From Aliivibrio fischeri ES114 (lineage in GTDB: Bacteria > Pseudomonadota > Gammaproteobacteria > Enterobacterales > Vibrionaceae): 32,000 bases of DNA. The stretch lies in the NCBI RefSeq assembly GCF_000011805.1, contig NC_006842.1; one strand, written 5' to 3'. This document shows positions 655-12,949 of this stretch, in pieces. The notes below the pieces were generated by a model, which saw only the letters and a list, made by a program, of their open reading frames with translations, made no database searches and was not told where the DNA came from. A program made the translations under genes and the position numbers. How positions within the stretch are numbered: position 1 is the stretch's first letter; each line of letters opens with the position of its first letter.

Positions 655-1671
655 TTATTTTAATAGCCATTGATGCGCTTTACTTGCTTGGCTTGCTGCT
701 TTAAAAATGAACTTCTTATCTCCATTCAAACGCTCTAACCAACTAACGATATAACTTTCATGCTGAACTTCTCCGACTATCCCTAAATCTGCACAACAAA
801 ACGCCGCCCCCAACTCTGCTATCAACTCTTCAAATGCATAATCTTTTGAACCAAAACTATTTTTTAAATCTCGATCTAAACGACTTTTATGACCAGTAGC
901 GTGAACAAGTTCATGCCATGCCGTTGCATAATAATCAGAAGAAGAATTAAAACGATCAACCATTGGCAACGTAATTTCATCATGTGCAGGAGAGTAAAAA
1001 GCACGAACACCGCAATGATTAATCTTTATCTCTGTATTATGGATCGCCTCTTCTACATAACTCAGTTTAACAAACTCACTTTTTTCTCTGGTTTCTTTTA
1101 CCGTAACCATTGGTTTTTCTATATTTTCCACCTGATCGATATTAAACACAGTAAAAGTTCTTAACATTGGGATAACTTCTTTATTCCCCTCTTCATCTTC
1201 CTTTTCCCAATTTTTATAATAAACAATTGTTGTCCCCTTTTGCCCTTTCATTACATTACCGCCTAATTCATTGGCTTGCTTATAGGTCAACCAATAAGGG
1301 CTAGTAAATCCTTTCTCGACCGTTTCACTCCAAAGCAATAAAATATTTATGCCAGAATAATTCGTTTTTGTTTTAAAATTCATTGGTAACATTGAACATT
1401 CATTGGTTTTATCCCAAGGACAAACCCAAGGCTTCACCCCATTTTCTAATGCTGCTATAACGCGATCTGTAACCATCTGATAAATATCTTTCGATACCTT
1501 AACCACCGCACGTTTTTTACCAAAGCTGCGCTTTTTACCCATTTCATTTTTGTTTGAGCCTGACTGCTCAAACGGGGATACGTTTGTCGCTTCTGTTTCT
1601 TTAGTGATTGTTGAGTTGATAGCAGTTGAATGAGTCATGGCTGTTTTTCCTATGGTTAAGTGAGTTTTCAT
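655..1671 (-). CDS. ardC: ArdC-type antirestriction protein (N-terminal ssDNA-binding ArdC domain plus C-terminal HExxH zincin metalloprotease) with a ~55-60 aa N-terminal extension
   Basis: Motifs KPWVCPW...NYSGINILLLW (ArdC N domain) and WHELVHATGH (HExxH). The start is uncertain: MKTH at 1671, or MTHS 33 nt downstream, which has the better SD. Confidence 0.9.
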   Translation of the reverse strand: MKTHLTIGKTAMTHSTAINSTITKETEATNVSPFEQSGSNKNEMGKKRSFGKKRAVVKVSKDIYQMVTDRVIAALENGVKPWVCPWDKTNECSMLPMNFKTKTNYSGINILLLWSETVEKGFTSPYWLTYKQANELGGNVMKGQKGTTIVYYKNWEKEDEEGNKEVIPMLRTFTVFNIDQVENIEKPMVTVKETREKSEFVKLSYVEEAIHNTEIKINHCGVRAFYSPAHDEITLPMVDRFNSSSDYYATAWHELVHATGHKSRLDRDLKNSFGSKDYAFEELIAELGAAFCCADLGIVGEVQHESYIVSWLERLNGDKKFIFKAASQASKAHQWLLK

Positions 1672-2019
1672 CTTCGTCGTCGCCTGACTGTTCGTTTTCT
1701 TGCCATCGTTCTATTGGACAAGGGCGCGAAGCGTTTATATACCCTTGATCAATAGGTTGTGGTGAGAAACGATTAACAGGAAGTAGCGAGACGATATGAA
1801 AAGTCACCCATAGGAAAAATAATGACTCATGAGAATGCTATCAGCGATTACAAGCACTTAAGAGACAGAAGTGAAAGCTCTTGCTTTTGGCTCTTGCTTT
1901 TGATGTTGCGATAAGGATTGTCTAGCAGGAACGTAGAGGCCGTTTAAGCTTTGCTTAAATACGGCATCACGTTATCGATAGGAGGAGTGAAACGACGAAA
2001 AGCCTGTTAAATCGCCCAA
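1543..2019. repeat. Copy 1 of the ~470-bp direct repeat (structured non-coding element plus shared 5' coding leader)
   Basis: Aligned by eye to 4826-5291. Flanks are near-identical, an ~83-nt core (1691-1772) is diverged, and copy 1 carries a 13-nt internal duplication. Confidence 0.9.
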
Positions 2020-2034
2020 ATTATGATATTTAAG

Positions 2035-2271
2035 CTATTCACGCTCGATGATCACCTTAAGGATCCGATTTAATAGAGTCATAGTATGATAAAAACCACA
2101 AATACTAAGTATTAAAGTAACTCCCAATTTAATTATATGAAACCACATATTTTCAAGAACTTGTTCACTACCACTACTGATCACTGAACATGCGAAAATA
2201 AATCCAAGAAAACAAATAAAAGTATAAACAGCAGCAAGCTTAAAAGAATGAAGCTCTTTAGATATATTCAT
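2035..2271 (-). CDS. Small two-TM membrane protein, unknown function
   Basis: ORF track 2035..2310. The start is moved to MNISK (2271), 2 nt after the stop of the upstream ORF. Two hydrophobic segments. Confidence 0.5.
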   Translation of the reverse strand: MNISKELHSFKLAAVYTFICFLGFIFACSVISSGSEQVLENMWFHIIKLGVTLILSICGFYHTMTLLNRILKVIIERE

Positions 2272-2273
2272 AT

Positions 2274-2729
2274 TTACATGCAGCCATATAGAGCGATACC
2301 TTGATGACAACGTTCAATAGCTTCACCAAGACTTGCAAACATTCCAAGACTACTAGAGCGATCCCACGCGCCACCAGTAAGACACCGCACATCATAACGT
2401 TTTCCCGTTGGCCATGCTTTTAACCAAGCATCCTTTAATTCTTTCTGTCTTTCATAAAACTGACTTTCAGTATCAAGTTTAATTTCGATGTCAATTGAGC
2501 TCATTCGCTTTACATAATCTTGATAAGATTCATCGCTATGCTCGTCAATTTCAATGAATGGTCGGCCATACCAATGCTCCCACTCTAAAGAATCACGGTC
2601 ATTATTTGGTGTAAAATTAAAAGATTCTCTTAGATGAGGATTAATAAAAATATCTTCAACTCTTTCACATGTTTGATTTTCTGGGTAGTGCTCAGGTAAA
2701 TAATCGTCTTTTTGATTTTCCATTTTCAT
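2274..2729 (-). CDS. Hypothetical acidic protein, unknown function
   Basis: ORF track 2274..2759. The MKMENQ start at 2729/2723 is preceded by AAGGAAGGA. No family recognised. Confidence 0.55.
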   Translation of the reverse strand: MKMENQKDDYLPEHYPENQTCERVEDIFINPHLRESFNFTPNNDRDSLEWEHWYGRPFIEIDEHSDESYQDYVKRMSSIDIEIKLDTESQFYERQKELKDAWLKAWPTGKRYDVRCLTGGAWDRSSSLGMFASLGEAIERCHQGIALYGCM

Positions 2730-2742
2730 TCCTTCCTTTTTC

Positions 2743-3072
2743 TCATTTGTTTGTTTCAAACAAACCGCCTATTTTTGGCTCTATACCGCAATCGTGAGAA
2801 GCATACACCACTTCACGATTGGTTAAAGCTTCCCCGCACAATATACAATTTTCATCAGCTTGTTGATCTAAGTGAAACTCTAGATCTACAGCTTCATTTG
2901 TTGATACTTTCCAGTACTCTTCAGAAAAAAAGTTTGCTTCACTATCTACCAAGCCATCTTTGTGAGGATATGCCGCAGCATATTGAATATTACCATCAGT
3001 GCTATTTTCCAAAATAGCATAACAATCAGGATTGTTTTTTAGAGCTTCTTCATACGTTTTATACGTAGACAT
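2743..3072 (-). CDS. Hypothetical protein with a CxxC...C segment, unknown function
   Basis: 109-aa ORF. GGAGA lies 7 nt upstream of the ATG. No family recognised. Confidence 0.55.
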   Translation of the reverse strand: MSTYKTYEEALKNNPDCYAILENSTDGNIQYAAAYPHKDGLVDSEANFFSEEYWKVSTNEAVDLEFHLDQQADENCILCGEALTNREVVYASHDCGIEPKIGGLFETNK

Positions 3073-3074
3073 AA

Positions 3075-3266
3075 TTATTTCTCCGTTTTAGTTTTCGTTA
3101 AAAACGAAAACAAAATAGTTCCGACTAACCAACCATTAAGCCCACTCATAGCCCCATTCTGCCAAGTGTCCCAATGAAAATTCACGGTTACAGCAGTAGA
3201 CAAAATAGCAACAACAAAAAAAACAGGAAGCACTAACAGCCAAGCCTTAAATTTAGAAAAACCCAT
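3075..3266 (-). CDS. Small two-TM membrane protein
   Basis: 63-aa ORF tightly packed between neighbours. Two hydrophobic helices. Confidence 0.45.
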   Translation of the reverse strand: MGFSKFKAWLLVLPVFFVVAILSTAVTVNFHWDTWQNGAMSGLNGWLVGTILFSFLTKTKTEK

Positions 3267-3292
3267 GATGATTGACCCCGTCTTTTTTCTGT

Positions 3293-3694
3293 TTAATTAT
3301 CTTCAACATTCTCAATATCATTGAGATTCAAAAGATCTTTATATTGACTCGAAGCATCAATTAAATCCGTAATAGAGATAACATTTGCGGCTAATAGCAT
3401 TAATTGCCATGCACAATAATTCATTGGTACGTGTTCCTTGCTATCAACATGCGTCTCCCAACGCCTAACCGCTTTACACCCTTTCTTACTATACGTTTTT
3501 CCTAATAACGAGCCTAATCTCGCTTGAGGATAACCAAGTAATTGCCGTAATGCTCTTACCTCTTCTGGTGTTGGTGGTAAATGACCAGGATGTGATAAAG
3601 GCAAAGAGCAAGGACGATTACGAAACGCCTCAACAGTGATGGCCGTAGAACTAGAATATTGCGCGTGTTTTTCACACATAAAATAAAACTCCAT
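3293..3694 (-). CDS. XRE/MqsA-like HTH protein
   Basis: Segment PTPEEVRALRQLLGYPQARLGSLLG...RRWE matches the usual XRE-type HTH pattern by eye. Confidence 0.55.
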   Translation of the reverse strand: MEFYFMCEKHAQYSSSTAITVEAFRNRPCSLPLSHPGHLPPTPEEVRALRQLLGYPQARLGSLLGKTYSKKGCKAVRRWETHVDSKEHVPMNYCAWQLMLLAANVISITDLIDASSQYKDLLNLNDIENVEDN

Positions 3695-3770
3695 TTGTAT
3701 TTATGGGCTGCGAAGCAGCCCAGCATTTTAGCAACGATAACGGCCAATAGATGGCCGTTACGATTAAAGG

Positions 3771-4268
3771 TTAGATCCAACCTCTTTTAGCAAAAGAGAC
3801 CGTTTCACCAACTCCTATCACAAAATGATCAAGCACTTTTACATCAATAAGCTCTAATGCTGATGATAATCGAGCGGTAATGCGTCTATCCGCATCGCTC
3901 GGCTCTGCAACACCTGACGGATGATTATGAGCAAAAATCACGGCTGCTGCGTTATAATGCAGCACAGATTTAAGCACTTCTCTTGGGTAAACCGAAGCAC
4001 TCGAAATTGACCCAACACTATGCTCAACAAATTTAATTAAACGGTGTTGGTTGTCTAACATTAGAATGGCGAAGACTTCACGCTCTTGATGAACAAGACG
4101 ATTAACACATAACTCAGCCGCTAAATCAGGAGACGTTAACGCAGATGTATTTCTGATCTTAACTTCAATAATTGAAGCCGCTTCTGCAAGGATCATTTTT
4201 TCATTTTCAGTAAACATAGATTTTTCTCGTTGTTGAGGTCTTGGATTATTCCCGACCAGTGCACACAT
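3771..4268 (-). CDS. radC: RadC-like JAMM-motif protein (YeeS/YkfG class)
   Basis: [24 protein letters not shown] signature. The alternative start MFTENEK at 4217 is plausible. Confidence 0.9.
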
Positions 4269-4314
4269 TATACCGCCCTTTAAGGGCGGTTAAAAGCTTT
4301 TATTTTATTTATTT

Positions 4315-4572
4315 CTATACAGACCAATAACGCCACATTTTTTCTAATCGTAATTGATTCTGTCTCGATAATGATTGAGCGTTCGCGTTCACTCTTAAAG
4401 CCATTCTCTTATGAACATTAAATGAGGTTAATGTGTTCTCCAATACGGCCATTTTTTCAAAATAAAATGCCTGTTTTGCCCCGTATTGACGAATACAATG
4501 TTCATCTAACGTTGGTCTTATTCTTCGGCCTAATCGTGAATATGCACGATAATTTTTCATGAAACTTTTCAT
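4315..4572 (-). CDS. Small basic hypothetical protein
   Basis: ORF track 4315..4686. The start is moved to MKSFMKNY (4572), 1 nt after the upstream stop, which avoids a 113-nt overlap. Confidence 0.5.
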   Translation of the reverse strand: MKSFMKNYRAYSRLGRRIRPTLDEHCIRQYGAKQAFYFEKMAVLENTLTSFNVHKRMALRVNANAQSLSRQNQLRLEKMWRYWSV

Positions 4573-4573
4573 T

Positions 4574-4954
4574 TTAATCTCTCGCCATATACAGCCAATC
4601 TTCATCATGCCCCAAGTGACAACCACCAATATAAATATTCCAAGAGCAAAAAGTGGCGTATTGAAAACTAATATCCAAAAAATCAATATCCGCTAACGCT
4701 TCGTATGTCCACCCATTTTCAGGAGGAGGCACAACCACAGTAAAATCATCGCCAATACTTTTCAGGATCAGATCATGCTTTCCAAAAACAGATAAAAAAT
4801 CTGGGAAATTTTCGCTCTTTAGACATTCATTTTTGTTTGAGCCTGACTGCTCAAACGGGGATACGTTTGTCGCTTCTGTTTCTTTAGTGATTGTTGAGTT
4901 GATAGCAGTTGAATGAGTCATGGCTGTTTTTCCTATGGTTAAGTGAGTTTTCAT
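4574..4954 (-). CDS. Hypothetical protein carrying the same 43-aa N-terminal leader as ArdC
   Basis: ORF track 4574..5092. The upstream part lies in the structured repeat. The start is placed at MKTHLTIGK (4954) by analogy with the ardC copy. Residues 1-43 are identical to ArdC residues 1-43. Confidence 0.6.
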   Translation of the reverse strand: MKTHLTIGKTAMTHSTAINSTITKETEATNVSPFEQSGSNKNECLKSENFPDFLSVFGKHDLILKSIGDDFTVVVPPPENGWTYEALADIDFLDISFQYATFCSWNIYIGGCHLGHDEDWLYMARD

Positions 4955-5291
4955 CTTCGTCATCGCCTGACTGTCCGCTCTCCTGTCATGGTTCTGCCTT
5001 ACAAGGGCGCAATGCGGCGAAGCGAACCCTTGTAAGGGAGGTTCTGATAGGAGACGGTTAACAGGAAGTAGCGAGGCGATATGAAAAGTCACCCATAGGA
5101 AAAATAATGACTCATGAGAATGCTATCAGCGATTACAAGCACTTAAGAGACAGAAGTGAAAGCTCTTGCTTTTGATGTTGCGATAAGGATTGTCTAGCAG
5201 GAACGTAGAGACCGTTTAAGCTTTGCTTAAATACGGCATCACGTTATCGATAGGAGGAGTGAAACGACGAAAAGCCTGTTAAATCGCCCAA
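4826..5291. repeat. Copy 2 of the ~470-bp direct repeat
   Basis: Aligned by eye to 1543-2019. The diverged core is 4974-5057 and contains an 11-bp perfect stem (4997-5007/5027-5037). Confidence 0.9.
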
Positions 5292-5434
5292 TATAGGCAT
5301 AAATACATCAAACTTTGCTTGCACAGCAATAAATTATTATTTGGATTGGTATTAACTGAAAACTTTAGGTTAGAATACAGACGGGTGCTTTTGGTTATCA
5401 ATCGAAAGCATGACACAAGTTTTGCAGACGGTAG

Positions 5435-5497
5435 ATAAACAAAAACCCCGAAAGTAAATTTTCATTAACTAACGAGGTTTAAGTGATGTACCCAACA
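5435..5497 (-). ncRNA. sok: Sok-like antisense RNA (predicted)
   Basis: - strand promoter: TTGCCT (5532-5527), 17 nt spacer, TAAGAT (5509-5504). Terminator stem 5473-5480/5443-5450 followed by TTTTTGTTT. The RNA is complementary to the mok SD and start region. The ends are estimates. Confidence 0.6.
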
Positions 5498-5536
5498 ATG
5501 CAAATCTTAGCCTCTATTTTGATAAGAGGCAAGTAA
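5486..5536 (+). CDS. mok: mok-like leader ORF, translationally coupled to hok
   Basis: GAGG at 5474-5477. The 16-codon ORF MYPTMQILASILIRGK ends (TAA 5534-5536) 1 nt before the hok ATG. Confidence 0.5.
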   Translation: MYPTMQILASILIRGK

Positions 5537-5537
5537 A

Positions 5538-5687
5538 ATGCTGAAAAAATCGGCGGTAACGAGTTTGGTAGTCATTTGCGTGACTATCGTAATAAGTCTT
5601 TGGTTAGTACGAGATTCATTGTGTGACATATCGTATCAATCAGGGAGCACGATAATAACGGCAACACTTGCTTACGAATCAAGGTAG
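5538..5687 (+). CDS. hok: Hok/Gef-family membrane toxin (49 aa)
   Basis: Own translation: MLKKSAVTSLVVICVTIVISLWLVRDSLCDISYQSGSTIITATLAYESR. It matches the Hok signature (TM helix, then SLCEIRYRDG...AYES). Below the ORF-track size cutoff. Confidence 0.85.
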   Translation: MLKKSAVTSLVVICVTIVISLWLVRDSLCDISYQSGSTIITATLAYESR

Positions 5688-6294: not shown

Positions 6295-7347
6295 TTAAGC
6301 GTAAGCATAACCATTTCGATATGAACGTAAAAAGCCAGCATGTTTCAAATCCATTAAAACAAAATTAATGGTTTCACGCCCTACTCCCTTAAATTTTTCA
6401 CTAACACCACGTTGACTAGGTTTCACCTCTTTTGCAAGAACCGCTTGTTTGATCTCAAAATAAACTTGCTCATTACATTTTAAATGATCATCGCTGAATG
6501 CTTCATGATGATTATTAATCAACTCAGAAACGCAGTCATTAAAATGTTCGTCATTAACCGCTTGTGAGTGTGTAAGCACTGCGCACGACTGCGCATCAGT
6601 TTGTGACTGCGTTTGAATAACATCAGACGGAATAAGCTCTAGCGCAGACGTTTTTTCATGACTGCTCACGACTGCGTTTGAGTGCGCGTGAGTGCGTTTC
6701 AGTGCATTAGAAACTAACACTAATAACCAACTCATTAATTCAAGCGCACCAGATGTGATGTAACTAATTAATAAACCGAATTTATCAAAGACAGTAGATT
6801 CACTAGGTAGTGTAGATTGACGCTGATATAACGCATCAATACGAACTAAAAGAGGTTCAACTTTTTCTAACGTTCTTTCAGATTTAGTAATAAGGTTTGC
6901 ACTTTGTTGTTTGGCCGCAAGAAGACGTAACTCGTCAACTTGGGTTTTATATTCTTTAATTTGTCGAGAAACGGCTTGATAAGCAGTACTATTTTTTTGA
7001 CTAGCAACAACACCTTGTTCTAAAGCAGCAACAGAAGCAGAGAACGAGACCAGGCTTAATGTCAGACTTAGAGCTAAAGCAAAGAACGCAGAAACGTATT
7101 GTTTTTGTGAAAACAAAAACAATACAAACATAGGAGTAGCACATTTAGCGAAATCAAGCACAATGCCTAATGTGGTCATTAATACAGGTTCGCCCATAGC
7201 TAACCCGATACCATACATAAACTGAGCGGTTAAAATAGCGGATAGGATAGCTGTTGCAATAGATAACACTATACAAACATATTTTAAAGGGTTAGCCGTT
7301 GCAATAGATAGCACTATACAAACGGATTTTAAAATAGTAGAGTTCAT
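6295..7347 (-). CDS. Polytopic membrane protein with a central coiled-coil-like region and a C-terminal winged-HTH-like domain, function unknown
   Basis: 350-aa ORF. The N-terminal ~110 aa are hydrophobic (about 4 TM). The Q/L/E-rich middle looks like coiled coil. The C-terminus reads SQRGVSEKFKGVGRETINFVLMDLKHAGFL. No family recognised. Confidence 0.6.
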   Translation of the reverse strand: MNSTILKSVCIVLSIATANPLKYVCIVLSIATAILSAILTAQFMYGIGLAMGEPVLMTTLGIVLDFAKCATPMFVLFLFSQKQYVSAFFALALSLTLSLVSFSASVAALEQGVVASQKNSTAYQAVSRQIKEYKTQVDELRLLAAKQQSANLITKSERTLEKVEPLLVRIDALYQRQSTLPSESTVFDKFGLLISYITSGALELMSWLLVLVSNALKRTHAHSNAVVSSHEKTSALELIPSDVIQTQSQTDAQSCAVLTHSQAVNDEHFNDCVSELINNHHEAFSDDHLKCNEQVYFEIKQAVLAKEVKPSQRGVSEKFKGVGRETINFVLMDLKHAGFLRSYRNGYAYA

Positions 7348-7446
7348 TTGTGATTAATTCCTATTGATTATATTGGTCACACTAAACCTCGGTATTGCTT
7401 GGCGGCTATCGAGGTTTAACTTTATTTATAGAATTGAATTTTCAAT

Positions 7447-7518
7447 GTATAGTTGTATAGTTGTATAGTTGTATAGTTGTATAGTTGTATAGTTGTATAG
7501 TTGTATAGTTGTATAGTT
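7447..7518. repeat. 9 perfect tandem copies of GTATAGTT; candidate downstream centromere site
   Basis: Counted directly (72 nt). The array abuts the parB-like stop codon. Confidence 0.85.
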
Positions 7519-7796
7519 TACCCGTTATATTTATCAATGATATAATTTAATGCTTCTTCTACAAGTTCAGGTTTACTTTTTCCCTTCACTTTCTTTTGCT
7601 CATAAATTACAGCCTCAAATTGATCCCATATATCATCTTGAACATATACCCCTCGGGTTGTTCTAGTTAATGTTTTTTTCTGTATAACTTTAATCATTCT
7701 AGGTGCATCTGGATTTTCTGTTTGATCCTTATTTAAATTATCTACAGCACGGTCTTCTTCATCTTTCATCCAATTAAATCGAGAGTCATTTGCCAT
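7518..7796 (-). CDS. Small ParB/ParG-like centromere-binding protein (C-terminal ribbon-helix-helix pattern)
   Basis: 92-aa ORF coupled to parA (TAATG overlap at 7796). The C-terminal strand-helix-helix pattern is RGVYVQDDIWDQFEAVIYEQ...PELVEEALNYIIDKY. Confidence 0.65.
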   Translation of the reverse strand: MANDSRFNWMKDEEDRAVDNLNKDQTENPDAPRMIKVIQKKTLTRTTRGVYVQDDIWDQFEAVIYEQKKVKGKSKPELVEEALNYIIDKYNG

Positions 7797-8371
7797 TATT
7801 TTACCTCTACTAAAATATGATTCATTACTTGTAAAAATTCACGACGGCGAGATTTTATCTTATAAGCTCTATTTAACGCATCATCAAAAATAGTTCTATA
7901 TTCCGTTGCTGCACGTCCAAATACACCACTAGATGGAATAACAAACGCACCACGATCTTTCATTGCCTCAGTCACTTCTATTTCATCTTTTCTATGATGA
8001 TTAACATCAGTCACAATTGTCAGAATTTTTCTATCTAATTTTGAAGCTCTTTTATAAGCATCAATATAAGTAGCATACTGATCTCGTGCTGGTTTAAAAG
8101 GCATAACTAAATACCCCCCCTCAGGAACCTCCCAATCGGCTGCTTGATGATCAAAAATAATAATATCAGCATCAGGTTTAACTTTCGGTATTGAACTGAC
8201 AACATCAAATGGTAAATTACCACCTTTAAAATAAAGAGTTGATGTACCTTGTGGATCTTGACAAATAACTAATGGTTTTTTCCCTAATTCAACAGCAGCG
8301 GCAGCAAGGTTTATTGTTATCATAGATTTACCTTGCCCTCCTTTAGGATTCCAAACGTCAATAATTTTCAT
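7796..8371 (-). CDS. parA: ParA partition ATPase, small type without an N-terminal HTH
   Basis: Deviant Walker A NPKGGQGKS. 191 aa. Synteny with a small partner gene and flanking repeats. Confidence 0.9.
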   Translation of the reverse strand: MKIIDVWNPKGGQGKSMITINLAAAAVELGKKPLVICQDPQGTSTLYFKGGNLPFDVVSSIPKVKPDADIIIFDHQAADWEVPEGGYLVMPFKPARDQYATYIDAYKRASKLDRKILTIVTDVNHHRKDEIEVTEAMKDRGAFVIPSSGVFGRAATEYRTIFDDALNRAYKIKSRRREFLQVMNHILVEVK

Positions 8372-8392
8372 TTATAACCTCACTCTATAGTT

Positions 8393-8616
8393 GTATAGCT
8401 GTATAGCTGTATAGCTGTATAGCTGTATAGCTGTATAGCTGTATAGCTGTATAGCTGTATAGCTGTATAGCTGTATAGCTGTATAGCTGTATAGCTGTAT
8501 AGCTGTATAGCTGTATAGCTGTATAGCTGTATAGCTGTATAGCTGTATAGCTGTATAGCTGTATAGCTGTATAGCTGTATAGCTGTATAGCTGTATAGCT
8601 GTATAGCTGTATAGCT
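8393..8616. repeat. 28 perfect tandem copies of GTATAGCT; candidate upstream centromere/operator
   Basis: Counted directly (224 nt). Degenerate copies flank it at 8385-8392 and 8617-8660. It starts 14-22 nt upstream of the parA ATG. Confidence 0.85.
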
Positions 8617-8688
8617 GTATAGTATCATAACTATACAGTTATACAACCGTATAGTTGTACAGTTTAAATATAAATTACACAGTTTGTT

Positions 8689-8788: not shown

Positions 8789-9421
8789 TTGAATGCTGAT
8801 ATACGTATTTATGGGTACCTACGTGCCTCAACCGATGAGCAAGATGCATCGAGAGCAAAAAATGAGCTGATGTTGTTCGCGGAACAAATGGGATTTCAAG
8901 TTGCTTGCTGGTTTGAAGAAAATGAATCTGGAGCCCAACTTAAGCGGCCAGAGTTATTTCGTTTGCTTGATATTGCAATATCTGGAGATGTGATCCTGGT
9001 AGAACAAGTAGACAGGATAAGCCGGCTCAATACCCAAGATTGGGAAAAATTAAAGTTGATGATCAATAAGAAAGGGTTAAAAGTCGTTTCTCTTGATTTA
9101 CCGACCAGTTATCAGTTTATGAGTAACACAGATGACTTCACAGAACGAATGCTTTCGGCTCTCAACGGAATGATGCTCGATATGTTGGCCGCAGTAGCAA
9201 GAAAGGATTATGAAGATAGACGTCGGCGTCAAGCTCAAGGTGTTCAACGAGCAAAATTAGAAGGTAAATATAAAGGACGTCCAATTAACACGAAGCTGCA
9301 CAATAAAATAGAAGGATTACTAAGAGAAAATAAGAGCTATAGCCAAATTGAAAATCTACTTGGTTGCTCTAGACACACGATTTCGAAGGTGTCAAAGTTA
9401 ATAAAAAGTTCCATTGGTTAA
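8774..9421 (+). CDS. Serine recombinase (resolvase/invertase family)
   Basis: YGYLRASTDEQ catalytic-serine motif, VDRISRL motif, and a C-terminal HTH (SYSQIENLLGCSRHTISKV). The exact start is uncertain. Confidence 0.9.
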   Translation: MYSALLNADIRIYGYLRASTDEQDASRAKNELMLFAEQMGFQVACWFEENESGAQLKRPELFRLLDIAISGDVILVEQVDRISRLNTQDWEKLKLMINKKGLKVVSLDLPTSYQFMSNTDDFTERMLSALNGMMLDMLAAVARKDYEDRRRRQAQGVQRAKLEGKYKGRPINTKLHNKIEGLLRENKSYSQIENLLGCSRHTISKVSKLIKSSIG

Positions 9422-9429
9422 CAAACTCC

Positions 9430-9452
9430 ATAGCGTTACCTTGTAACGCTAT
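9430..9452. terminator. Hairpin between the convergent resolvase and dinI genes; candidate bidirectional terminator
   Basis: Stem atagcgtta/taacgctat (9 bp) with loop ccttg. T-rich sequence follows on the + strand. Confidence 0.55.
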
Positions 9453-9482
9453 TTGTTAATTTAGCTCATTTTCTTTTCATTC

Positions 9483-9713
9483 TCACACATAAAGCCATTC
9501 TTCTGCATCATTAAACATGTCTTCAATCAACTTATTGGCCGTTTCTTTATCATTTTTAGGGGCATAGATTTCTAAATGATTATTGGTGCCTTTTCTGATC
9601 CTAATACGTGCGTCAGGATAACGCTGCCACACACGACGTTCCATTTCTTGTTGAATTAGCATTGCCCCATTTGTTGGGAGTAAAGCGGAATTTAATATCA
9701 TTTCAATACGCAT
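9483..9713 (-). CDS. dinI: DinI-family DNA-damage-inducible protein
   Basis: 76 aa, MRIE...LP.GA...YPDA.I.IR...AEEW pattern like E. coli DinI. GAGG SD. A LexA box lies upstream. Confidence 0.85.
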   Translation of the reverse strand: MRIEMILNSALLPTNGAMLIQQEMERRVWQRYPDARIRIRKGTNNHLEIYAPKNDKETANKLIEDMFNDAEEWLYV

Positions 9714-9730
9714 AATAGCCTCATTAGCAA

Positions 9731-9746
9731 CTGTATATTTAAACAG
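9731..9746. promoter_or_regulatory. LexA (SOS) box CTGTATATTTAAACAG
   Basis: Matches the CTGT-N8-ACAG gammaproteobacterial consensus exactly. It lies 18 nt upstream of the dinI start codon. Confidence 0.8.
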
Positions 9747-10139
9747 TGTTTATTTTTATACGGTTCGTTACGAAAGTAAATATTTATCGATGCTCTTTCA
9801 TTTAAAAATGTGTTTTAACGCGTTAAAACCGTTTTTAAATACAAAGCGATGCACAGAAAGAGAGCTAAAATGGTCATGACTCGATGATGTAATAGGTAAG
9901 TAGGCCAGAGTCACCCACTACCACAACATTGCTTGTAAGCGCATAGGGAAAGAAATACCCCCTAATTAAAAGTAGCCTCAACCCTCGCCCTGCTAGAATG
10001 CTCTTAAGTGCGTTGGTTTATCAGAGTGTGAGTGAGTTTCCTGTCGGATGACAAAAGAAAGATCCAGCGCAGCCAGTAGGGTGATGCTCTGTTTATATGT
10101 GTTGAAATAGAACTGGCTGGGGGCCCGTTAATTTTCTTC

Positions 10140-10400
10140 TTATAATTTATTTGTGTATGAGGAGTTTATTGAAAATTAATGGGAGGTATTTTTATGCTTT
10201 TGCTCTTTGGTTTCTATTAAATATTTATTTAATTATTTATATAAATACTAAGTACTAATACGTAAGTACTCATAAGTGCAGCACTCTATTCGTTGCCTTT
10301 TTTAGGCTTTTTTTTAAAGATATTTTCTTGCACTACTTTTTATGTGGATAACAAAAATGAACTATCGAAAGATAAAAACCAACAAAAAATAACAAGGATC
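10140..10400. other. Candidate oriV: AT-rich tract with short repeats and a DnaA box, downstream of rep
   Basis: Very AT-rich at 10140-10330. TAAGTACT at 10249-10256 and 10263-10270, with the variant TAAGTGCA at 10273-10280. A DnaA box lies at 10343-10351. Confidence 0.45.
10343..10351 (-). promoter_or_regulatory. DnaA box (TGTGGATAA, the reverse complement of TTATCCACA)
   Basis: Perfect 9-mer match to the consensus, about 155 bp beyond the rep stop codon. Confidence 0.55.
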
Positions 10401-10504
10401 ATGCAAAAATGATGGGGGATAGAAAGCGATTATTCGCTAAAATGGTATAAACTCAAATTTTAGATGTGCGAATGCCTCCGCTTTCGCGGATACGTTAAAA
10501 AACT

Positions 10505-11332
10505 CTAATGAGGTGCAAGTTGTGGTAAGTAAGCTTCAAACACCGTAGTGACGCTCTGAGCTACGTTATTCAATTTATCGGCGTTAAATACGTCCTGAAC
10601 ACCAGACGCTAACGTTCTAAATGACATCCAAGAAAAACGTAACCCCTTTTGCTCTTGACGCTTACGAGACGCAATGATCAGCTCACAAATATTACTGTAG
10701 CGAACCACTTTTAAATCACTAAAGAAACGCTCTGAAAATTGTTTATAAGCTGGTGCGCTACGAACCGTACCTTCTTTCATATCGACGCAAACATTGACAC
10801 GCTCACTATGAAGATAACCGGCGCGTTTTAGATAGGAGATAGCTTTAGCAAACGACTTAGGTGAAATATAACGCCCAAAACGTAATGCATAATCTTCTTG
10901 CAGATGATCGTAACTTATCGGTTTTAAACCTGCTTCAGTAGGTAAACCAATGCGGCCACCAATTAGATCCGTATTCACAATGATACAAGCAAGCACGTTC
11001 GCAATAAGTCTTCGGCATTGAATATTATTCACTCCTTCACCGCCCCAGGCATTCAGTGCTGGGAAACGGTTTGGGTTATCTATAAATTCTTCACACGATT
11101 TTAAAATACGCGCGTATTCAGGCGGTAAGGTTTCCCATTTACCACTGCGCAACAAGCGACGAGAGCGAAAATCGAATTTAAAAGGACTCTTAGGCTTCTT
11201 TTTGTTTTCATCAGCAACAACAGAGCGATGAAGTTCAATCAGCTCATGCTTACGATTTTTACGTTTAGCACGATATTCAGCATCATATTGCTTTTTAATG
11301 TGAAGTTTAGAGAGAAGATCAGAATGCTTCAT
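10505..11332 (-). CDS. repA: Plasmid replication initiator (resembles IncFII-RepA-family proteins by eye)
   Basis: ORF track 10505..11365. The start is moved to MKHSDLL (11332), preceded by GAGGA at 8 nt. Basic N-terminus. Context: an adjacent AT-rich region with a DnaA box and an upstream leader ORF. The family assignment is from memory, not a search. Confidence 0.55.
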   Translation of the reverse strand: MKHSDLLSKLHIKKQYDAEYRAKRKNRKHELIELHRSVVADENKKKPKSPFKFDFRSRRLLRSGKWETLPPEYARILKSCEEFIDNPNRFPALNAWGGEGVNNIQCRRLIANVLACIIVNTDLIGGRIGLPTEAGLKPISYDHLQEDYALRFGRYISPKSFAKAISYLKRAGYLHSERVNVCVDMKEGTVRSAPAYKQFSERFFSDLKVVRYSNICELIIASRKRQEQKGLRFSWMSFRTLASGVQDVFNADKLNNVAQSVTTVFEAYLPQLAPH

Positions 11333-12499: not shown

Positions 12500-12679
12500 A
12501 TGAGAAAAAAGAAAGAAACCGTGGGGATTCATTTTCAAATGGACAAAATCACGAGTAACACGCTTGAAAAAGAAGCGCAAAAAACTGGACGTAGTAAACG
12601 ACAAGAAGCAGCCATTAGACTTGCTGATCATGTCGCCCGTTTTAGTGCTCTTAATGAATTTGAGTACATAGAAAAATAA
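12500..12679 (+). CDS. Small ribbon-helix-helix-like protein (59 aa), divergent from the CI-like repressor
   Basis: Own translation: MRKKKETVGIHFQMDKITSNTLEKEAQKTGRSKRQEAAIRLADHVARFSALNEFEYIEK. Strand-helix-helix pattern. AAGG lies upstream. Below the ORF-track cutoff. The 74-aa track ORF on the opposite strand is its shadow. Confidence 0.55.
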   Translation: MRKKKETVGIHFQMDKITSNTLEKEAQKTGRSKRQEAAIRLADHVARFSALNEFEYIEK

Positions 12680-12888
12680 TTTTTTTATCGTAATTAATCC
12701 CATATCGGGATGCTCTTTAAAAACTAGGGAACCTGTTCGCTGCTGTGCAGTTAAACACGCTATCGGTAAGCCACTTTTATGAGAAGTGTAAGACTTATTA
12801 GATCACTGAAAATGCGTTGAAAACAGCAGTAAGCCTATGGAAGTGCCTGCCGTGTGAATATCCACGTTCAGAGCGCCATAGCATTTTA

Positions 12889-12924
12889 TTAGGCAAGCTC
12901 ACTTGCATAAGCGAGCTTGCCTAA
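12889..12924. other. Perfect 12-bp stem hairpin ttaggcaagctc/gagcttgcctaa with a 12-nt loop
   Basis: Read directly. No T-run follows on either strand. It lies about 25 nt upstream of ORF 12950. Confidence 0.6.
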
Positions 12925-12949
12925 TCATCACGGATAAAAAGGAATGGTT

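Follow-up and report, generated by a model that had tools for sequence, protein, structure and literature searches.

Two copies of a hairpin element in Aliivibrio fischeri ES114 as a putative single-strand promoter cassette of a new sequence class

A Repeated Element Heads ardC and a Second Gene Block

Two copies of a repeated element lie in the stretch of Aliivibrio fischeri ES114 DNA analysed here, 32,000 nucleotides (nt) of NC_006842.1 (assembly GCF_000011805.1) that we call the window and whose positions serve as coordinates, and each copy stands at the head of genes on the - strand. Copy 1 (1543-2019) heads ardC (655-1638, -), which encodes an ArdC N-terminal domain and a zincin-like metallopeptidase (Pfam PF08401, 9.5e-44, and PF18818, 5.7e-46). 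Copy 2 (4826-5291) heads a block of seven open reading frames (ORFs; 2035-4921, -) extending from ORF 4574-4921 through radC (3771-4268; Pfam PF04002, 9.1e-43) to ORF 2035-2310. The first 7.3 kb of the window match the A. fischeri plasmid pES657-44 (conjugative, MOBP, MPF_T) at 98% identity. Both copies are defined by repeat alignment, by their fold as DNA and by matches to a covariance model, and we assign their function to the + strand. Judging from modelled folds and from homologues, we propose with a probability of roughly 0.7 that the element represents a new sequence class of single-strand promoter cassettes, active on the transferred strand during conjugation; expression of ardC and of the second gene block would then probably begin while the plasmid is still single-stranded.

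A first-pass annotation of the window, made from the sequence alone, had described 1543-2019 and 4826-5291 as direct repeats, and pairwise alignment reproduces its mismatch counts. The left 148 nt (1543-1690 and 4826-4973) differ at one position, a core of ~83 nt is diverged, and the right ~235 nt show two mismatches; here copy 1 also has 13 nt duplicated in tandem (GCTCTTGCTTTTG at 1867-1879 and again at 1880-1892). A separate repeat search returned the same three blocks, and directly beyond 1543/4826 and 2019/5291 the identity between the copies is that of the background. In the apical domain of the fold described below, 35 alignment columns differ between the copies, 22 of them in paired positions, and nine pairs are changed on both sides with pairing kept. 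These compensated pairs argue that the copies represent one structure in two allelic forms, each lying between arms that have been homogenised.

In A. salmonicida pVSAL320 (9183-11092 of the examined locus) ardC is followed by one element and then by hok. This is the arrangement expected from homologous recombination between the two direct repeats of the window, and the radC block therefore looks prone to gain and loss.

Secondary Structure of the Element

Folded as single-stranded DNA (ssDNA), each copy forms one imperfect hairpin of ~290 nt followed by a 3′ domain of ~140 nt. Minimum-energy folds and covariation place the main hairpin of copy 1 at 1587-1874 (+), with a 5′ arm at ~1587-1720, an apex at ~1721-1744 and a 3′ arm at ~1745-1874; that of copy 2 lies at 4870-5159 (+) according to its minimum-energy folds. 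Full copies 1 and 2 reach -104.8 kcal/mol (z = -12.7) and -104.7 kcal/mol (z = -11.0), respectively, and none of 100 shuffled sequences was equally stable. The first-pass annotation had suggested folding the + strand of 1672-2019 and 4955-5291 against shuffled controls, and these sub-ranges, too, are far more stable than shuffles (z = -6.2 and -5.1). The full elements fold much better still because the left 148 nt, which had been regarded as mere coding sequence, are also the 5′ arm of the hairpin; the repeat boundaries of that annotation thus stand, while its anatomy of the left part does not. Nor does the pairing it had proposed between aacagg (1775-1780) and cctgtt (2003-2008) occur in the minimum-energy fold, where 1776-1779 pair with 1688-1691.

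The prominence of the two structures was assessed with 300-nt sliding windows over the whole 32 kb, following the method of PMC12672017. Among 1586 such windows the two elements occupy the first two ranks (-75.0 and -80.3 kcal/mol; mean -30.4, sd 8.6), and the threshold of -75 kcal/mol published in PMC12672017 is reached by the + strand only. Both elements thus display what is looked for in ssDNA promoters, i.e., a long stem-loop on one strand that is more stable than its composition would predict. Among the Rfam 15 covariance models none matched either copy, the only hit being sok at 5383-5548, beside copy 2.

The apex carries GCGAAGC (1726-1732, +; 5017-5023 in copy 2), an instance of the DNA mini-hairpin GCGNAGC. 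Of 31 family members at least 23 have this motif, and each of the four bases occurs at N. The mini-hairpin is hyperstable and known from the phage G4 origin, RSF1010 ssiA and a phage N4 ssDNA promoter (PMC13037366). A small hairpin, CAAACG-GGGATA-CGTTTG, precedes the main one (1569-1586, +; 4852-4869 in copy 2) and shows compensatory changes in all six of its pairs. On the other side, the 3′ accessory domains (1875-2019 and 5160-5291, +) are 99% identical between the copies; their motifs, including a covarying small hairpin, are kept in Vibrionaceae and Shewanella, and the Klebsiella copies carry other sequence there.

Covariation and the Folding Strand

All 15 homologues used for folding (mean column identity 54%) adopt the same hairpin (z from -4.7 to -14.6), and in each of them the + strand is more stable than its complement, by 5.6-18 kcal/mol. 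Since MAFFT, applied to the full hairpin, does not align the indel-rich mid-stem reliably, covariation was counted at the base, at the apex and in the model-aligned apical domain only. For the 56 pairs on these reliably aligned helices, 94.7% of cells are paired versus 34-45% when the partners are slid; 39 pairs have changed on both sides, and the observed covariation score was reached in 0 of 500 shuffles. The same proportion (94.7%, versus 36-44% when slid) was obtained with 30 distinct aligned sequences that include loci outside model building. A covariance model built from the apical domain finds exactly two matches in the window, with 145.7 bits at 1667-1801 and 144.9 bits at 4950-5086, and picks up further copies in ten genome contigs that had no part in its construction.

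Wobble pairs reveal which strand has been selected to fold. In the + strand structure G·T pairs outnumber A·C combinations by 53 to 4 (87 to 9 in a larger set), and deriving the structure from the opposite strand leaves the bias in place (18 versus 10; 18 versus 4 for shared pairs). This excess indicates that the selected fold is that of the + strand, the template strand of the genes, and not that of the mRNA. The orientation of the genes agrees with it: each of the 13 annotated homologous loci has its next gene on the template-compatible strand, and 12 of these genes overlap the 5′ arm.

The same data bear on an explanation at the RNA level, in which a long mRNA hairpin in the 5′ leader or an antisense RNA would control translation, stability or termination between operons, and single-stranded DNA would have no part. 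A read-through mRNA does fold very stably and buries the ribosome-binding site and AUG, and there are promoter-like sites on the - strand upstream of each copy. But the G·T pairs of the + strand become A·C mismatches in an mRNA-sense hairpin, which as DNA is ~15 kcal/mol less stable; no + strand promoter lies left of the hairpin from which a full antisense RNA could start; and the apex is a stability motif specific to DNA. We therefore regard an RNA-level function as quite unlikely.

A Putative Promoter in the 3′ Arm

A position weight matrix scan predicts a sigma70-like site on the + strand, immediately after the apical loop on its 3′ side and in the same alignment columns in most homologues. 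In copy 1 the predicted -35 and -10 hexamers, both in the 3′ arm, are TTGATC (1745-1750, +) and AACGAT (1768-1773, +), and in copy 2 they are TTGTAA (5030-5035, +) and GACGGT (5053-5058, +). The TTG of the -35 is found in 30 of 31 copies and is part of an invariant CCCTTG that forms a CAAGGG/CCCTTG stem. After a spacer of 16-18 nt, the -10 has the form nAnnnT, with its A (A1769 in copy 1) in all 31 copies and its T (T1773) in 30. This T together with the next 2-3 nt makes up a conserved bulge (TTAA; T1773 and 1774-1775 in copy 1), which is followed by a 4-bp helix and two small internal loops, so that in the modelled fold the helix is irregular where promoter opening would have to occur.

Transcription would start in the 5′ arm, which serves as the template. 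Taking the pairing partners of nt 6-9 past the -10, we infer a start at 1685-1688 (-) in copy 1 and at 4968-4971 in copy 2, within an invariant CTGAC. An initial candidate promoter, TTAACA-16-TATGAA (1774-1801), was dropped, as its -10 is not conserved in homologues and the better-conserved site lies 29 nt upstream. Sigma54, sigma32 and a conventional - strand promoter were also considered as readings of the conserved motifs and fitted poorly by eye.

Ribosome-Binding Site and Leader Codons in the 5′ Arm

The 5′ arm also contains signals for translation. A Shine-Dalgarno (SD) sequence, AGGA (1648-1651), and the ATG of ardC (1636-1638; together 1636-1651, -) are located inside it, as is the ATG at 4919-4921 in copy 2, and the surrounding GTCATGG is invariant across homologues. 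Existing annotations begin the gene at this conserved ATG for 10 of the 13 annotated homologous loci, and likewise for the copy-2 gene of pES657-44. The ATG opens a leader of 32 codons, MTHSTAINSTITKETEATNVSPFEQSGSNKNE (1543-1638, -), that is fused to ArdC in copy 1 and, at 4826-4921, to an unrelated protein of 115 aa in copy 2. The frame is open for 32 codons in 15 of 15 homologues, two of which have a 12-nt deletion that keeps it, and the ArdC domains start only at residue 50. Unrelated proteins thus begin with a common leader that is encoded by the hairpin arm. A protein search with the 42-aa leader returned only two short matches, the query being too short for that database. Across the family the products of element-headed genes are likewise unrelated to each other and comprise ArdC, DUF3560 and several hypothetical proteins.

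The predicted start would give a leader of 50 nt before the conserved SD and ATG. RNA beginning at this position is unstructured (-8.5 kcal/mol, z 0.07), whereas in a read-through RNA both the SD and the AUG are buried in a duplex of -111 kcal/mol. The comparison suggests that only transcripts initiated in the hairpin would be translatable.

Direction of Transfer

An oriT-like motif is common to the plasmids pVIBHAR, pLH24-3 and pES657-44 and lies outside the window (pES657-44 45937-46030; 120-190 and 6990-7080 in the examined loci L013 and L020). It consists of an inverted repeat, TTCAAAGGG...CCCTTTGG, of a second inverted repeat, GGCAC...GTGCC, and then of CCTAT(C/A), and in all three plasmids it adjoins the relaxase operon, upstream of stbA/stbB-like genes. 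The relaxase is preceded by a NikA-like gene. In characterised origins of transfer the repeats are found 5′ of the nick on the transferred strand, and the nick core of RP4 is CCTATCCTG|C. In each of the three plasmids the motif shares strand and side with the + orientation of the element, with the relaxase on the trailing side, and it lies 3-5 kb upstream of the nearest element copy. Its orientation, read against the known oriT architecture, makes the + strand the likely transferred strand, with the relaxase entering last. On that reading the candidate nick would be ~4 kb left of window position 1, as judged from the 98%-identical relative, and the elements ~5.5 and 8.8 kb into the leading region; the expectation of the first-pass annotation, that the + strand is transferred and oriT is to the left of ardC, fits with this.

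Other routes to polarity were abandoned. The orientation of the relaxase alone gave contradictory answers for pVIBHAR versus pES657-44 and pLH24-3, a conflict that the shared oriT-like motif resolved, and pVSAL320 was uninformative, being rearranged by insertion sequences (IS). Within the window, an oriT at the inverted-repeat cluster 487-640 was rejected since this is a separate conserved module located away from the relaxase in relatives, one at a ribbon-helix-helix (RHH) gene with a palindrome (12500-12925) since it matches only four Aliivibrio plasmids, and ATCCTG as an oriT mark since it occurs at chance frequency.

The link to transfer also has to be weighed against a function in ordinary replication, in which a hairpin on the lagging-strand template or a supercoil-driven cruciform would act as a replication-coupled promoter, priming or protein-binding site and have no link to conjugation. 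Extrusion is possible for any long palindrome once it is single-stranded, and some carriers are typed as non-mobilisable. The orientation of the element is, however, tied to the oriT-like motif and to the direction of the genes and not to the replicons, which differ widely; its cargo consists of anti-restriction and SOS-modulating genes typical of entry; and a cruciform would give no bias for G·T over A·C on one strand. Such a role appears slightly less probable even than the RNA-level one.

Comparison With Known Single-Strand Promoters and Priming Hairpins

The first-pass annotation had likened the element to the Frpo/ssi promoters of F and ColIb-P9. Members of this class 1 are recognised by BLAST at E < 1e-6 to five known Frpo/ssi sequences (Samuel et al., 2024). 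Our family covariance model gave no match at E <= 1 in the 19-kb leading region of F, motif searches for the family in F yielded matches at chance level only, and by eye the sequences are unlike Frpo1/2. We therefore consider the element to be Frpo-like in design only and not homologous to Frpo. With this correction and that of the anatomy, the interpretation given in the first-pass annotation is supported in silico, each of the computational checks it had proposed having turned out in its favour.

The likeness in design is nevertheless extensive. Frpo1 and Frpo2 of F and ssi1-3 of ColIb-P9 are likewise hairpins of ~300 nt; they lie on the transferred strand in leading regions, as predicted for the element, and rebuild a promoter in the 3′ arm directly after the apical loop, as proposed for it. 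As in the element, small extra hairpins follow on the 3′ side, and two near-identical copies separated by a few kb each stand at the head of a block of early genes. The two Frpo copies of F are 92% identical and ~5 kb apart, with a hok-type locus nearby as in the window. In contrast to class 1, whose members are GC-rich, the element is AT-rich and has a GCGNAGC apex; its hairpin arm takes in a ribosome site, a start codon and 32 codons, while the F hairpins are wholly upstream of their genes; and it heads ArdC or DUF3560 genes in place of ssb, psiB and ygeA. Its cargo, with ArdC, DUF3560, RadC and DinI, is typical of leading regions, as the first-pass annotation had remarked, and DUF3560 is a leading-region-enriched family in Samuel et al. 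(2024).

Further ssDNA promoters, of classes 2 and 3, have been described in pESBL and F upstream of klcA/ardA and M.EcoGIX, with support from 5′ rapid amplification of cDNA ends (PMC12672017). These classes and the Frpo′/Frpo* candidates (Samuel et al., 2024) resemble our element as we interpret it, being hairpins other than Frpo that drive anti-defence genes from the incoming strand, and the Frpo′ candidates and the F class-2 element also have their -35 and -10 in the 3′ arm, running 5′ to 3′ on the transferred strand. Classes 2 and 3 differ from the element family in their transcript-end support, the latter being known from sequence and computed folds. Neither motif search nor covariance model found similarity to the family in the F class-2 element (locus L002, ~6400-6750) or in the region upstream of the methylase operon, and none of 18 listed Frpo′/Frpo* sequences was clearly homologous, the resemblance of Frpo*2/4 being limited to a few short motifs. 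In the searchable literature we found no ssDNA promoter described upstream of ardC in Gram-negative plasmids.

The virion RNA polymerase promoters of phage N4 and the G4-type and RSF1010 ssiA hairpins are also functional ssDNA hairpins with GCGNAGC-type caps, which resist single-stranded DNA-binding protein. Unlike the element they are short (stems of 5-8 bp), use dedicated polymerases or primases and have no sigma70 -35/-10 arrangement. They raise the alternative that our hairpin is mainly an ssi signal at which DnaG primase, or RNA polymerase acting as a primase, starts synthesis of the complementary strand, any effect on gene expression being incidental. The folding strand is the predicted transferred strand, Frpo itself was first described as a promoter for primer RNA, and the invariant CTGAC/CTG on the template arm resembles primase start triplets. 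GCGNAGC mini-hairpins moreover mark the phage G4 origin and RSF1010 ssiA (PMC13037366). Priming leaves unexplained, however, why every copy heads a gene in one orientation, and why a ribosome site and an ATG occupy a fixed place in the arm with the frame open in every homologue. As the main function it seems unlikely, if somewhat less so than the RNA-level and replication-coupled alternatives; the two roles are not mutually exclusive, and priming may coexist with a promoter role.

Proposed Mechanism

With these comparisons in mind, we envisage a single-strand promoter that would work as follows. When the + strand arrives in the recipient, its imperfect palindrome of ~290 nt would snap into the hairpin, with folding nucleated by the hyperstable GCGNAGC apex. 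The upper stem would thereby rebuild a sigma70-type promoter with the 3′ arm as the non-template strand, and the last base of the -10 and the discriminator, lying in the conserved bulge and followed by the small internal loops, would ease opening. Host RNA polymerase would start at ~1685-1688 in copy 1 and ~4968-4971 in copy 2 and proceed leftwards with the 5′ arm as template, reaching ardC in the first case and the block with radC in the second. As the SD, the ATG and the 32 codons are in the 5′ arm, they would be free only in transcripts begun inside the hairpin; later read-through transcripts from duplex DNA would contain both arms and bury the ribosome site. Once the complementary strand is made, the hairpin would be lost, the weak promoter would point away from the genes and expression would stop.

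Several points weigh against this proposal. The -10 hexamer is weak (GAYGRT), with only its two key bases conserved, and as these bases lie in or beside the stem another constraint could account for their conservation. Conservation is higher in the template arm near the predicted start than in the arm that carries the promoter, a pattern not expected from the model. None of the experimentally validated ssDNA promoters resembles the element in sequence, and the evidence for the family is computational throughout. Furthermore, the transferred strand is deduced from a candidate oriT-like motif, relative to which the relaxase operon is inverted in pVIBHAR as compared with pES657-44 and pLH24-3, and pPBPR1, the MOBC plasmids and the integrative and conjugative elements (ICEs) gave no established polarity.

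The more far-reaching version of the proposal, to which we would give an even chance, is that of a fourth, so far unclassified class of ssDNA promoter: a portable cassette of promoter, ribosome site and 32-codon leader that would express the gene fused to it only while the DNA is single-stranded, with read-through locked by the palindrome, and that has spread over plasmids of Vibrionaceae, Shewanella and Enterobacteriaceae and over the yersiniabactin-island ICE of E. coli, in which it would drive ArdC. Early expression from the incoming strand allows plasmids to have anti-restriction and SOS-damping proteins made before host defences act. To our knowledge only a handful of ssDNA promoters have been tested so far, all from IncF and IncI plasmids. 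If the proposal is true, a separate family would extend the principle well beyond these models, and its sequence and structure model could be used to find leading regions and transfer polarity in unannotated elements. The built-in translational lock would explain how expression can be confined to the first minutes after entry, and the invariant bases offer precise targets for mutagenesis.

Distribution of the Element Family

The first-pass annotation had advised a family search, and the covariance model together with BLAST places the family on conjugative or mobilisable plasmids and ICEs. By BLAST the element is present at 867 places in 492 plasmids, with hosts including Klebsiella, Escherichia, Vibrio, Salmonella and Shewanella; the carriers include IncR/IncF resistance plasmids of Klebsiella and Vibrio plasmids of shrimp pathogens. 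An enterobacterial subtype found in 478 plasmids usually has two copies ~1.4 kb apart that head ardC and a neighbouring gene. Among complete E. coli genomes, 289 of 5426 contain the element, with a median of one and a maximum of four copies, only within conjugative elements. Chromosomal copies account for 205 places in the same set of genomes and sit in the ICE of the yersiniabactin island, an ICE present in ~4% of the genomes (for example E. coli ACN001, 2.07-2.09 Mb), where fyuA, a virB type IV secretion system (T4SS), the coupling protein and the MobC relaxase are followed by element-headed ardC.

A long imperfect palindrome with more than one copy per replicon might also be a functionless selfish repeat, akin to a miniature inverted-repeat transposable element (MITE), or a by-product of recombination, and the single copy of pVSAL320 is what recombination between two repeats would leave. 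The first-pass annotation had named a location inside a known IS or MITE as an outcome that would speak against its model. The family instead has a low copy number, as seen in E. coli, and it always heads a gene, at a fixed position and orientation relative to the gene start, with no transposase nearby; this does not fit a MITE or IS, for which many dispersed copies, terminal inverted repeats with target duplications and a lack of fixed relation to genes would be expected. In addition, it shows extensive compensatory evolution, and several of its motifs are invariant across Vibrionaceae, Shewanella and Enterobacteriaceae. A selfish origin is the least probable of the alternatives, to which we give almost no weight. 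Strand bias, gene association and distribution are thus the reasons for which the RNA-level, replication-coupled and selfish explanations are all disfavoured.

In both Klebsiella IncR plasmids examined, pK245 and INF157 unnamed3, a group II intron (ltrA) lies ~230 nt to the right of the element (6565-8052 in locus L007 and 3565-5052 in locus L015, as the examined loci were labelled). Group II introns of this type often target stem-loops in ssDNA.

Other Features of the Window

Just 3′ of ardC, at 487-640, the window has a strongly structured non-coding module (z -9.9 for the DNA fold), in which a hairpin of 16-bp stem is joined by two smaller ones and by a stem resembling a terminator. Conservation of this module extends to 109 Vibrio/Aliivibrio plasmids, and in the two relatives checked, pMBL96 and pLH24-3, the gene that it directly follows on the 3′ side is again the first one headed by the element; it may serve in priming or as a terminator. 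To the right of copy 2, on the strand opposite to the leading genes, is a hok/sok toxin-antitoxin locus (5383-5687, +), recognised by the Rfam sok match (87 bits at 5383-5548) and by an ORF for a Hok of 49 aa, and four other plasmids likewise have Hok on the right-hand side of the element.

The small RHH (TraY/NikA-like) ORF mentioned above (12500-12679) is followed by a perfect palindrome of ~36 nt (~12890-12925), and both sit between a cI-like repressor gene and genes for pilus and T4SS; the region could be an operator or a second transfer-related site. Long arrays of the 8-nt tandem repeat TGTATAGY at 7405-7580 and 8319-8662 flank parA-like genes (7518-8371) and are probably centromere or iteron sites; they also cause spurious microRNA matches in Rfam and a strong fold on one strand. 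Finally, two direct repeats of 44 nt (89% identical) at 7245-7333 lie in the 5′ end of an ORF of 350 aa (6295-7347) without Pfam match, which could encode a replication initiator together with its binding sites.

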